Shown: positions 43,001 through 46,973, counted from the first letter of the stretch. The stretch: 64,000 bases of DNA from Eledone cirrhosa (GCA_964016885.1 OZ024742.1:157976001-158040000), one strand, 5' to 3'. Translations and numbers: made by a program. Notes: generated by a model not told the origin, from the sequence alone.

Positions 43001-43236
43001 TCATAGTTTAACAGTGAATATGTTCTAAGATATAAGTATTTACACACACACACATACATATATATAGGTATGCACACGTACACACATATATACACATGTA
43101 TATATATACATAACCACACACGTATGGGTTATATCTAACATTATAATAATGTTCGATACGTTTGTAAAGAAAAGGCCATATTTGAAGCTGTGCCGGTGAC
43201 TGATCATCATGTTTGTTCAACACAGGCTTTGAGGAA

Positions 43237-43276
43237 TTATCAACATGTTTCTTGGTCATTACCCATCATTAGGAAT
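43237..43276 (-). ncRNA. Decayed hammerhead motif, positional homolog of the 51-52 kb ribozyme
   Basis: Minus strand: attc-CTAATGA-tggg-taatga-ccaa-GAAA-catg-TT. Core G5 is changed to A. Confidence 0.45.
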
Positions 43277-43540
43277 GTATACCTCTGCCAGTCTGTTCAA
43301 CGGTTGAAAATATATAGTATTTTCTTAAGTACAGATCGGCTGAGTTGCCTCATTTGCATACCAAACGAGTTACGGCTGGCCTTGCCGAATATTAAATATA
43401 AAATTAGAATGTTATTTCTCGCCCTAGCACAGCTGATACATAAATGTAAGTATGCACACGTACACACACACACACACACACATATATATATATATATATA
43501 TATAATATAAGATCAAAAGATGGTTAAAGGAGTTCCATAT

Positions 43541-43609
43541 ATTTTATTATGCGCATTTCAAAAACAAACATCATCAAGCAATAATATTTGTGTTTTCATC
43601 AGATAAAAC
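43541..43609 (-). ncRNA. Minimal type I hammerhead ribozyme (left arm copy)
   Basis: Reverse complement of 44748-44816. Confidence 0.82.
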
Positions 43610-44747
43610 AGGAGAACATGATATGAAGGCTAAAAAACACTTGTGGATAGTGCAGTTTTAAATCAACATATGAAAAGTGGTTTTAGATTGATGTGTGATA
43701 TTGGGAAAAATATTTTATTTAGAGAGGGGGGGGATGAAAAGGGAAGGAGATGAGAGGGAGAGATGGGTGATAGAGAGAAAGAGATAGTTTTTATAACTGA
43801 GAGGAGATATATTTTTCACATAGAGGGGTTGAAAACCGTTGGAAGATACTGTATAAATTAAAAATTTTGAAAATTAACGAAGGGAGGATATGTGCGAGGA
43901 AAAAATATTTTATTTAGGGAGGGGGGGGAGGATGAAAAAAAGGGGGAGGAGATGAGAGTGAAGGTGGAGAGGGAGAGATGGGTGATAGAGAGAAAGAGAT
44001 AGTTTTTATAACTGAGAAAAAGATATATTGTTTTAATATAGAGAGGTTGGGAACCGTTGGAAGATAATGTATAAATTAAAGGAATTTGAAAATTAACGAA
44101 GGGAAATTATGTATGAAGATAGAGAGAAAAAAATAATAATTGTGGGTGAATATTCTAACGTCAAAAGAAGAAATGTATGTATTGTGGCAATTTCAAAATT
44201 AGCGAAGAGAAAAATTGTTAAGGTTTGTGTGTAGAAGGATTTGAGAAAAATAATGTGAAGTTAAAGTTTGTATATTGAATTGATAATATGTGCGAATAAA
44301 GAGTTAATATGTATTAATAATGAGTTCTTTGATGGGGAGAAAAAAATAATAATAAATTAAGGATGAAATTGAGATTAAAAAGATTTATGATAGAGAGAAA
44401 AAATAATAATGATTGCGGATGAATATTCAAAATGTCAAAAACAAATGTTATTATTTTACGAGAATATAGAATGAGGGTAATGAGTAAACGAGTATTATAG
44501 AGTGTATCTTCCAACGGTTTTCAACCCCTCTATGTAAAAAATATATCTCCTCTCAGTTATAAAAACTATCTCTTTCTCTCTATCACCCATCTCTCCCTCT
44601 CATCTCCTTCCCTTTTCATCCCCCTCCCCCCTCTCTAAATAAAATATTTTTCCCAATATCACACATCAATCTAAAACCACTTTTCATATGTTGATTTAAA
44701 ACTGCACTATCCACAAGTGTTTTTTAGCCTTCATATCATGTTCTCCT

Positions 44748-44816
44748 GTTTTATCTGATGAAAACACAAATATTATTGCTTGATGATGTTTGTTTTTGAA
44801 ATGCGCATAATAAAAT
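44748..44816 (+). ncRNA. Minimal type I hammerhead ribozyme (right arm of fold-back element)
   Basis: gttttat-CTGATGA-aaacaCAAATATTATT-gctt-GATGATGTTTGttttt-GAAA-tgcgca-TA-ataaaat. Confidence 0.82.
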
Positions 44817-45555
44817 ATATGGAACTCCTTTAACCATCTTTTGATCTTATATTATGCATACTCCAGTCCCACAAACTGTAGAGTGCTTCTTATCCGATAT
44901 CTGCATTGCTTTATTGTACTACAATAAAACTCACCTCCTACATTATATATATATATATATATATATACACATATATATATATATATATATATATATATAT
45001 ATATATATATATATATATACATATATATATATATATATATACATATATATATATATATACATACACACACATATATACATATACATAAGTACGTATGGAT
45101 TATCTCAAACATTAATAATAATATTCGATTCGTTTGTAAACAAACGGACTGATTTGAAGTTGTGTCGTGCCGGTGACCGAACGCCACCTCTTTGTTCAAT
45201 TTATGTATCAGCTGTGTTAGGGCGAGCTATAAAATTCTAATTTTATATATATATATATATATATATAAATGTATTCTCTTTTCTCCTAGTTTATTTTACA
45301 CCTAATTCTGTTTAATTAACTGTATATCTGGGCGATTACACTGTCGAAATATTCAATAAATATTCCGTCGCAGCCGACGCGAAGGGCTAGTTTCGGGTAT
45401 TTGTTGGGGATTTCTGCATAGAAGCCTTAATCTTATAGCCTGGTCTATTCGATTTTTTATATAGTTGATTATGCTAATTGGGAGAGGAAATGGTATATAT
45501 TTTATCTGGTGATTCTATAGACATGTTTTATGATATATATATATATATATATATA

Positions 45556-45826
45556 TAGTTATCAATATTTCTTTAAGTGTTGTGAGTACTGGATTTAACG
45601 ATTGTTAAATCCAGTATGAGCAATTACAATATTATATTTGTAAATATAATTCTGTAATTAAACAAATCTGTGTTAACATTTATTCGTATAATGAAGTGAC
45701 CCCGTATCACTGTTGGATTATATACAGCTGGCATGGAGTGCTTAATTCTGTTAAAACCAAATTTCCTTGATGGATTGGATTGCGCAAAGGCACCACTCAC
45801 AACACTTAAAGAAATATTGATAACTA
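45556..45826. repeat. Small insert with 32-bp terminal inverted repeats and an internal hairpin, flanked by (TA)n
   Basis: tagttatcaatatttctttaagtgttgtgagt / actcacaacacttaaagaaatattgataacta, plus the hairpin tactggatttaac-gatt-gttaaatccagta. Confidence 0.8.
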
Positions 45827-46973
45827 TATATATATATATATATATATATATATATATATATATATATATATATATATATAAAATTAGAATTCTATAGCTC
45901 GCCCTAACACAGCTGATACATAAATTGAACAAAGAGGTGGCGTTCGGTCACCGGCACGACACAACTTCAAATCAGTCCGTTTGTTTACAAACGAATCATA
46001 TATTATTATTAATGTTTGAGATAATCCATACGTACTTATGTATATGTATATATGTGTGTGTATGTATATATATATATGTATATATATATATATATATATA
46101 TATATATATATATATATATGTGTGTGTGTGTGTACGTGTGCATACTTACATTTATGTATCAGCTGTGCTAGGGCGAGAAATAAAATTCTAATTTAATATT
46201 TAATATTCGGCAAGGCCAGCCGTAACTCGTTTGGTATGCAAATGAGGCAACTCAGCCGATCTGTACTTAAGAAAATACTATATAGCTATCCATCTATCTA
46301 TCTATCTACATGTATATATATATATATATATATATATATATATATATATATATATAATGGGAGAGGAACGGAGGATATATATATTTAAATGTTTTTTTAT
46401 GTTTTAATTTTTTAATTTTAATATTTTTAATTTGTTATTTTATTTTTATTTTTTTTTTATTTTATAATTTCCCCTACTCAGATTTCATAGAATTCTTTTT
46501 TCGCCTGCTTTCTAGCTAGCCTAATTCAACTCCTTAGAATTTGCTGTATAGAATTTACTTTCAACGCTTGACCGGCTTCACCCACTCCCTCATTGTTCTA
46601 CAGGCAAGTTCAGCCACCCCACCCCCTACCCACTGCTATGAATGATTTAACTATATATATATAACATGTGTGTGTGTGTGTGTGTGTAAAAGGTAAACAG
46701 AAATAACAACACAATAGGTAGAGTATATGGAAGGTATATATTAGGTTAACGCTTGATATAGGAGGAAGAGGGTCTTAACTCTCACTTCTATCAGTGTTGT
46801 TGTTTTGAATAAGTTTCAATATTGAATTTTGTGCAAACCTTACTTCGTGATCTCAAGTACAACAATTGGCAGGATATTAATACCACCATCAATCGAACAG
46901 TTATTAGTCCAATCCTGATGCTATAGACCCATTGACACTGCACCTAAATATACGTAAACAATCAACTATAAAA

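Follow-up and report, generated by a model that had tools for sequence, protein, structure and literature searches.

How does a palindrome come to carry the same TA microsatellite twice, once with a 1.44-kb fold-back inside it and once uninterrupted? The question is raised by a locus at 43100-46285 in a stretch of 64,000 nt from the genome of Eledone cirrhosa (GCA_964016885.1, OZ024742.1:157976001-158040000), hereafter the window, in whose coordinates positions are given unless another locus is named. An earlier reading of the DNA, made without database searches (the sequence-only reading), had proposed that elements insert here into pre-existing (TA)n, including tracts within earlier elements, and so build nested clusters. 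From our analysis, the fold-back (43502-44943) probably consists of two 5'-truncated copies of one Penelope-like element (PLE) of the Hydra clade, placed head to head in the (TA)n tail of an older repeat, and the pair is likely the product of a single dual-primed insertion.

The inverted arms of the fold-back, 43502-43849 and 44504-44855, are 98.6% identical (352 nt, E 9e-177), and the next 88 nucleotides (44856-44943) are unique. When the sequence was compared with other loci of the genome, it was resolved into two copies of one element:

43502-44507, minus strand: PLE copy a, the 3'-terminal 1006 nt, all of it 3' untranslated region (UTR), 5'-truncated and without the 88-nt tail
44504-44943, plus strand: PLE copy b, the 3'-terminal 352 nt with the 88-nt tail (44856-44943)

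The two copies meet head to head at their truncated 5' ends, where they overlap by 4 nt (GTAT, 44504-44507), and both 3' ends of the pair face outward into TA. The sequence of copy a is found at 19 other genomic loci with 96-98% identity. The family of the fold-back arm is very abundant and young, with at least 829 candidates in the genome of about 3.0 Gb, and the 40 that were scored are 97-99% identical. At other loci the family sequence runs well past the point at which it turns back in the window, and two long copies share 3.5 kb.

A sample of 20 loci (L013-L032, the window's own locus included) contained 10 head-to-head pairs, four solitary 5'-truncated copies, one partial tandem and one other arrangement, and the remaining four ran off the locus. 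The copies are 5'-truncated at many different points and the position of the inverted junction differs in each of the 10 pairs; in two of them the partner is merely a piece of the tail, 34 nt or about 70 nt long. In addition, at one locus (L054) an inverted stub of 368 nt adjoins the 5' end of a full-length copy, and another (L055) holds an inverted copy, a partial tandem and a full copy. In these 20 loci and the two further ones, the family shows 5' truncation, a partial tandem arrangement (pseudo-long terminal repeat, pLTR) and an adjacent inverted 5'-truncated copy. According to the available text of Craig et al. (2021, PMC8557442), PLE copies are highly 5'-truncated, form pLTRs, can have an inverted and 5'-truncated copy next to them and carry a tail of 30-40 bp on one side. 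The 'fold-back element' of the sequence-only reading is thus not an element type but an inverted pair of 5'-truncated PLE copies, whose junction varies from pair to pair.

The ends of these copies follow a regular pattern. The 88-nt tail (ATGTAGG...GGAGTATGC on the reverse strand) was present at 12 of 25 family ends, and in all seven pairs with both ends visible it was found at exactly one outer end, for which the chance is about 0.008 if the ends are independent. A genome search with the tail as sole query gave no match, very common words being skipped in it. The junctions of five pairs show an overlap of 3-6 nt, and those of two pairs contain 32-44 nt of filler. At least 20 nt of TA adjoin 21 of the 25 family 3' ends, the pairs have TA-rich tracts on both outer sides, and all four solitary truncated copies have TA-rich tracts on the 5' side as well.

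Short-read contigs (X14, X16) were also compared with this family. Many of them reverse direction some 170 nt away from the PLE body's end, with a filler of 0-3 letters and joints at 43655-43672 / 44685-44697, and the joint of 43671 to 44686 was seen in 10 and 13 contigs. This recurrence suggests that inverted pairs at other places in the genome turn around preferentially at this point. Contigs from runs X1 and X2 (labelled as two other organisms) match 43502-44943, as well as the second insert of the locus (45267-45535, family F2, see below), at 90-99%, which indicates that both the PLE family and F2 occur outside the assembled species too. Parts of the outer arms (family Z, see below) were not covered in X1 and X2, an absence that carries no weight.

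The coding capacity of the family was examined in the full copy at L054, where the minus strand (1515-3905 of that locus) contains an open reading frame (ORF) of 796 amino acids, P0001. When its AlphaFold model (mean predicted local distance difference test score, pLDDT, 71.8) was searched against 48,161 PDB chains, the best match was telomerase reverse transcriptase (RT), 6zdp_A, with Z 16.1, a root-mean-square deviation of 2.8 and 264 aligned residues, and 9swo_A gave Z 15.3. After telomerase RT, the matches were the reverse transcriptases of retrons, diversity-generating retroelements (DGR), group II, R2 and LINE-1; the region of P0001 that matches telomerase RT covers residues ~112-486. 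One hundred homologues were found (E down to 4e-103), many of them on short metagenome or animal contigs. Their alignment contains RT-like blocks (FDxxxFYPSI, YRDDG and NFLDV), which in P0001 read FDIASYY, YRDDG and FLDV, and a C-terminal module of the form CxCX5C - (I/V)Y...Y(I/V)G...R..H. The GIY-YIG residues of P0001 are IYECK...YFGSTS...R..H (675-705). Pfam GIY-YIG matched two shorter C-terminal ORFs with E 0.0026 and 0.0036, both sub-cut-off, as well as 2 of 16 aligned homologues, and in the atlas neighbour clusters this domain is found in 26-38% of members. Pfam RVT_1 was matched by the homologue P0055 alone (E 3e-6, under the cut-off). The combination of RT with a C-terminal GIY-YIG nuclease indicates an endonuclease-positive (EN+) PLE.

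For the Hydra clade, the available text of Craig et al. (2021, PMC8557442) lists DKT, RWK, a CxCX5C linker and CxxC/CxH as motifs, together with no CCHH. P0001 contains DKT (SDKTNNLY at residue 119), as do all 11 homologues checked, and the linker (CNCRIKNKC at residue 655) is kept in nine of the 11. In the homologue alignment no conserved Cys pair lies between the GIY and YIG strands, that is, there is no CCHH in the core. A CxxC precedes the conserved E of P0001 (CNLCLNE at 755) and a CxH is found at 783, so that CxxC/CxH surround the conserved E and N in the alignment. RWK/RWR is present in 11 of the 11 homologues; P0001 has QRLKGNF at this place, and the motif is either degenerate or the copy damaged. 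The fold-back family therefore appears to be a Hydra-clade PLE, as placed by the motifs of the published clade.

A second, distinct Hydra-type PLE lies on the minus strand at 59231-62537. Of its ORFs, the one at 61213-62085 shares 54% identity with residues 243-514 of P0001 (E 1e-95), and the one at 60581-61258 shares 48% with residues 655-791 (E 2e-34), including CNCRx5C and GIY-YIG. Inverted arms (59231-59688 and 62081-62537; 96.8%) place an inverted 3'-terminal copy at the truncated 5' end of this element. Beside the full PLE in L054 lies an ORF of 745 amino acids (4593-6830, minus strand), which matches Pfam RVT_1 (E 1.8e-32), contains a PHD finger and is part of another retroelement.

The surroundings of the PLE pair were compared with each other. 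Match coordinates were taken from a repeat finder and from self-BLAST of 42900-46500 against the window, and the two were concordant. By self-BLAST, 43311-43509 is the reverse complement of 46085-46284 (97.0%, 200 nt, E 4e-92), and 45005-45274 is the reverse complement of 45850-46119 (97.0%, 270 nt, E 2e-128). A shorter match between 45533-45587 and 45795-45849 (100%, 55 nt) corresponds to the terminal inverted repeat of insert 3 (30-32 nt) together with TA. When the left arm minus 43502-44943 was aligned with the reverse-complemented right arm, 425 matches, 10 mismatches and 87 gap columns were obtained, and all gaps were within microsatellite. The arm identities of the nested palindrome are far above chance. 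The parts of the locus outside the inserts are as follows, where Z is an older repeat family resembling short interspersed elements (SINEs):

43120-43468, plus strand: Z1, a full unit of family Z (~357 nt), 89% identical to the reference over Z 1-357
43462-43501, no strand assigned: (AC)10(AT)10, the Z1 microsatellite tail, lying to the left of the PLE insert, from a run-length reading
44944-45090, no strand assigned: TA-rich tract right of the PLE insert, (TA)12 CACA (TA)24 CA (TA)10 CA (TA)8 and so on
45091-45199, plus strand: Z2, a second Z unit, positions 1-109 only, 90% identical to the Z reference
45199-45245, minus strand: inverted stub R, Z 334 to 288 (47 nt), joined to Z2 position 109 and forming the inner end of the left arm
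45246-45879: central TA tract of the outer palindrome, with TA blocks at 45246-45266, 45536-45555 and 45827-45879, split by inserts 2 and 3
45880-46284, minus strand: right outer arm, in the order R, Z2 copy, uninterrupted microsatellite, Z 357 to 200
45879-45925, sense: R in the right arm
45925-46033, antisense: Z2 copy in the right arm
46034-46126: microsatellite of the right arm (the 'empty site')
46127-46284: Z 357 to 200 in the right arm

This layout agrees with the sequence-only reading, in which the right arm mirrors the left-arm flanks together with their (TA)n, the 1.44-kb fold-back sits within the TA tract of the left arm only, and two further inserts (45275-45535 and 45556-45826) lie inside the central TA tract. 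Its coordinates were correct to a few bases, except that insert 2 begins at about 45267 rather than 45275, and its start at 43100 is accounted for by Z1, a full unit of the repeat whose 3' part makes the outer arm. Within the window, TA tracts of at least 10 units number 59 and total 2182 nt.

The two arms allow the filled and the empty TA site to be compared directly. The empty tract, read in left-arm orientation, is (AC)7 (AT)20 AC (AT)6 and so on, and the flanking repeats of the filled site, 10 + 10, equal its 20. No flanking sequence was lost at the filled site, whose surplus over the empty one is 78 nt of TA-rich sequence (44944-45021) beside the tailed 3' end. Because 10 + 10 equals 20, the right arm most likely shows the state of the tract prior to the arrival of the PLE. 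The comparison favours insertion in the middle of an existing (TA)20 tract with a gain of TA, for which the tail of the RNA itself or slippage would be the source.

The right arm could also have been emptied secondarily, if the palindrome formed with the PLE pair already in place and this arm subsequently lost the pair by slippage or recombination between the flanking TA tracts, perhaps aided by a hairpin. Direct TA repeats on both sides would permit a precise loss, and the order of events is not dated by divergence, which is about equal for the fold-back arms (5/352) and the outer arms (~5/~330 non-microsatellite positions), at about 1.4-1.5%. However, the empty tract is the exact sum of the two flanks and lacks the CACA-interrupted surplus, so that a deletion would require end-to-end register, and a loss involves two events instead of one. 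We therefore consider this order of events rather improbable.

It was also considered whether the TA tracts are not targets at all but 3' tails brought or made by the retroelements, in which case nesting would amount to tails abutting tails. All families at this locus end in TA, nearly all copies of the older Z family have a (CA)n(TA)n tail, and the filled site exceeds the empty one by 78-87 nt of TA-rich sequence, which lies beside the 3' end of the element. Nevertheless, this explanation is very unlikely, as the empty paralogous site has (AT)20 without any PLE, and the PLE pair has TA on both of its outer sides. The four solitary copies are TA-rich at the 5' side, where no tail could form. 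In addition, Naiad families and almost all Hydra families are reported to insert into (TA)n in the available text of Craig et al. (2021, PMC8557442). Most likely, TA target and TA gain both hold. Insertion into pre-existing (TA)n, as proposed earlier, thus stands for three inserts in TA tracts and an uninterrupted right-arm tract, with the correction that tracts were also lengthened at insertion. Likewise, nesting in the tracts of earlier elements is seen in the PLE pair inside the TA tail of Z1, although the order of events is not proven.

The two inserts of the central tract are:

45267-45535, plus strand: insert 2, a solitary 5'-truncated F2 copy (positions 314-588) with TA on both sides and no tail
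45556-45826, plus strand: insert 3, which is single-copy, belongs to an old and diverged repeat family and has TA on both flanks

Insert 2 is 98% identical to the F2 reference copy. F2 is a non-autonomous, non-coding family of ~590 nt with at least 2340 candidates of 94-99% identity, a constant 3' end (...TTTTATGA(TA)n) and 5' starts spread over ~550 nt. Being short and non-coding, with a common 3' end, a repeat tail and variable 5' truncation, it fits a SINE or non-autonomous retroelement. Among the 47 matches listed, all nine pairs of opposite-strand neighbours have their 5' ends facing each other, and the four pairs whose flanks were inspected each have a tail of ~70 nt at one end only. At several loci a long form of F2 extends beyond the tail into ...GTAAACCTTTATAT.. 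CTAATAATCTCCCATTAGG..., and F2 may therefore represent the terminal part of some longer element. At 17896-18680, an older copy of F2 (82-85%) is split by ~209 nt of other sequence.

Insert 3 has at its 5' side a perfect inverted stub of its own 3' end, 30-32 nt long. In the genome its full length is matched by itself only (13 matches, 11 candidates), and its relatives (67-89%) end ...CTCACAA... beside TA or CA repeats and are without the left inverted end. Since these relatives share the 3' end only, we interpret insert 3 as a truncated copy to which an inverted stub of 30 nt is joined, and not as a miniature inverted-repeat transposable element (MITE). A short-read contig of 267 letters covers 45570-45812 with zero differences (X14, X16). 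Inserts 2 and 3 were likely made by the same machinery as the PLE pair.

Other fold-backs are present in the window. At 19978-20498, a perfect fold-back (19994-20397, 100% over 404 nt) lies between two TA tracts and has a unique tail of 38 nt at its right end only. More fold-backs of 170-840 nt were found at 3411-3809, 13375-14213, 17716-17940, 24940-25478, 39805-40098, 50870-51036 and 52353-52525, most of which touch a TA tract directly on one side, the other side being unique. In all three families inspected, the body/tail boundary is TA-rich:

PLE family, body/tail boundary: ...CTTATATTAT, then GCATAC
F2, body/tail boundary: ...TTTTATGATATATAG, then CTCTG
Fold-back at 19978-20498, body/tail boundary: ...ACCAATATATAATAAC

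The inverted ends of these inserts might suggest cut-and-paste DNA transposons or MITEs, of fold-back or Stowaway/Tc1-mariner type, with a duplicated TA target and functional terminal inverted repeats (TIRs). The perfect 30-32-nt inverted repeat of the TA-flanked insert 3 and the 352-nt inverted ends of the 1.44-kb unit agree with such an origin. On the other hand, the inverted junction differs in each pair, with one arm down to 34-140 nt, and the unique tail is outside one 'TIR' only. The copies form a truncated series of a 3.5-kb element which encodes RT and GIY-YIG and no transposase. In the case of insert 3, the relatives share the 3' end beside microsatellites and not the left inverted end, and there is no second full-length copy. 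A transposon origin is hardly tenable on this evidence. Uniform-length, TIR-bounded MITE copies with TA duplication were not observed either; arm lengths and junctions vary in every pair.

The outer palindrome is built from a different family. The Z unit ends ...CATAAATGTAAGTATGCACACGTA, followed by its (CA)n(TA)n tail, as was seen when Z1 was compared with 11 other genomic copies. The family comprises at least 1500-1900 candidates (at least 1892 for Z1) with 86-94% identity. Among 77 Z fragments, 25 are 5'-truncated with an intact end and 27 are 3'-truncated, so that truncation at either end is about equally frequent; the short unit with its repeat tail otherwise fits a SINE or non-autonomous retroelement. 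The last 158 nt of Z1 (from 43311) make the distal part of the left outer arm, and the tail of Z1 is the tract that holds the PLE pair. The right-arm copy of this part of Z1 is 99% identical, compared with 94% for the best non-self genomic copies, and that of Z2 is 98% identical, compared with at most 91% for other genomic copies; the outer arms are therefore copies of each other and not independent insertions. The outer palindrome is not an insertion of the PLE kind but an inverted duplication of an older repeat composite (Z 3' part - microsatellite - Z 5' part - inverted stub) centred on (TA)n. The right arm stops at an internal TATATA of Z (46284), beyond which the DNA is unique.

Most likely, the outer palindrome was formed by DNA-level fold-back of a broken or stalled TA tract, which is the least secure step of our account. 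Alternatively, retroelement machinery could have been used, if a local antisense read-through RNA of the left arm was reverse-transcribed from a TA-rich nick at the right. The right arm corresponds to an antisense transcript of the left arm and its end at the internal TATATA is a possible pairing site for a TA primer; the same truncation point recurs in another copy (L065), and dual priming would place 5' ends at the centre of the palindrome. Such a route requires, however, a transcript spanning two repeat units and its reinsertion beside the source. No second composite Z palindrome was found, the candidate inverted pair L065/L073 sharing just 138 nt at 95%. We regard the RNA route as unlikely, although both routes give the identical end product, between which the sequence cannot decide.

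Junctions of sense and antisense Z like that between Z2 (position 109) and the inverted R were also seen in L095, at other positions, and in the window at 51870/51903. The region 51208-52268 contains three older Z-related units (~70% identity) in the order + + -, of which the second is cut at position 225 and adjoins the 3' end of the inverted third.

The question of assembly was considered for the whole nested structure, as palindromes around long TA tracts are hard to assemble, and no spanning read or contig was matched. The structure is asymmetric, with the 1.44-kb insert in one arm, two unrelated inserts placed off-centre, 10 substitutions and differing microsatellite lengths, which argues against a chimeric fold-back read. 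The locus is also inside a 379-Mb contig, one contig of short reads from this species begins precisely at the arm boundary (43311) and shows no difference, and another covers insert 3 (the sample may be the assembled one). An artefact of this kind is highly improbable.

For the PLE pair we propose the following course of insertion. The GIY-YIG nuclease would make a staggered cut within (TA)n and leave two (TA)n 3' ends, and because (TA)n is self-complementary, both of these could pair with an RNA that ends in (UA)n. One DNA end would pair at the terminal (UA)n of the RNA and the other at the TA-rich stretch just upstream of the tail. Two antisense cDNAs would then grow toward each other and be joined by a microhomology of a few bases (GTAT here), giving the product (TA)n - inverted copy - copy - tail - (TA)n, an inverted pair of which just one end is tailed. 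More tentatively, one RNA bridging both TA ends might explain the inverted partner, the one-sided tail and the microsatellite bias together, and TA tracts might be self-growing nests that fold back into palindromes; we put this forward as a possibility that is itself doubtful. If the surplus is TA added at insertion, each insertion enlarges the TA target and nesting would be favoured. The available text of Craig et al. (2021, PMC8557442) treats the mechanism of PLE integration as undefined and calls for an in vitro system, with reference to tandem and inverted structures and to microsatellite bias. When the literature was searched for a worked-out model of PLE inverted insertion, none was found.

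The three-prime part of the element contains one further feature that bears on the Hydra assignment:

44744-44818, plus strand (element sense): hammerhead-like motif, an unconfirmed candidate from a motif scan, with a mirror copy at 43539-43613, minus strand

The candidate has a 7-bp helix I (GUUUUAU/AUAAAAU), CUGAUGA, a long helix II and GAAA-U-GCGC-A-UA, and sits 40-110 nt from the element 3' end in both arms. The fold-back at 19978-20498 holds GAAATGCGCAACC, which resembles its GAAA-U-GCGC-A core.

Several points weigh against the interpretation of the fold-back as a dual-primed insertion of a Hydra-clade PLE. Dual priming is deduced from the end products alone, and insertion after the duplication cannot be dated because both arm pairs are equally diverged. 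The repeat 3' ends of the outer palindrome point to its centre, which is the opposite of PLE geometry, and the PLE mechanism therefore does not explain the outer palindrome. When short-read contigs were compared across 43000-46350, none spanned a TA tract, and the arrangement is not independently confirmed. With regard to the protein, Pfam detected no family on the whole 796-residue P0001 (and nothing on 14 of the 16 homologues) and the PDB sequence-profile search with P0001 gave no match; as these profiles are silent, the RT call rests on the predicted fold, the motifs and the sub-threshold RVT_1 match of P0055. The element is ~3.5 kb long with a 3' UTR of 1.1 kb, whereas Hydra elements are generally <3 kb in the published text available. 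Canonical hammerheads are readily detected in Hydra elements according to the same source (Craig et al. 2021, PMC8557442), whereas the candidate motif folds no better than shuffles (z -1.4) and is without the usual G10.1-C11.1 pair, the first pair of helix II. With E limits of 1 or 10, Rfam detected no hammerhead in 40000-54000 of the window, in L054 430-4400 or in 44725-44835 of the window (the last with E up to 10), and these scans gave only sub-threshold miRNA/snoRNA matches on low-complexity sequence.

The family is not a new kind of element; for PLEs, targeting of TA, truncation at the 5' end, inverted partner copies and a tail on one side have all been published (Craig et al. 2021, PMC8557442). 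The inference drawn earlier from the sequence was largely right and what is added to it is modest. The locus nevertheless provides a rare internal before/after pair for one PLE insertion, with a 10 + 10 split and 78 nt gained at the tailed end. It also yields rules that any PLE mechanism must reproduce, namely one tail per pair, a junction overlap of 3-6 nt and a TA-rich body/tail boundary. In addition, it shows TA microsatellites growing into nested repeat clusters and palindromes, which bears on assembly quality and genome instability.

Among known systems, Stowaway and Tc1-mariner MITEs are like insert 3 in having short inverted ends in TA, but here there is no uniform-length family and no transposase relative. 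Micron of rice was reportedly described by Akagi et al. in 2001 as a mobile element within (TA)n microsatellites. It is likened to the present inserts by its TA location, from description only, and is a plant element without a known RT or GIY-YIG partner. In the twin priming of L1, which Ostertag and Kazazian are said to have proposed in 2001, both target strands prime and an inverted 5' segment is joined at microhomology. The second primer of L1 is internal on the RNA and the two segments are different parts of the element, whereas both copies share the 3' end here, which would be possible with a TA target that is self-complementary. From yeast and human, fold-back inverted duplications and hairpin-prone AT-rich palindromes are known. 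The outer palindrome resembles such fold-back duplications in its self-complementary AT-repeat centre, with a mechanism that is here assumed from the end product.

Closer comparisons can be made with PLEs, as far as the available published text goes. The GCGC helix-III loop of the hammerhead-like candidate, which is type-I-like, fits the short palindromic helix III of Cervera and de la Pena (2014), except for the base of helix II. Published PLEs have a tail of 30-40 bp (Craig et al. 2021, PMC8557442), compared with 88 nt here. Naiads have an N-terminal nuclease and a CxC domain, and P0001 is arranged differently; Neptune has a CX2-5CxxC linker and CCHH, an arrangement which is not found in P0001. 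With both Naiad and Neptune, the family shares the bias for TA microsatellites, the inverted and tandem insertions and the tail.

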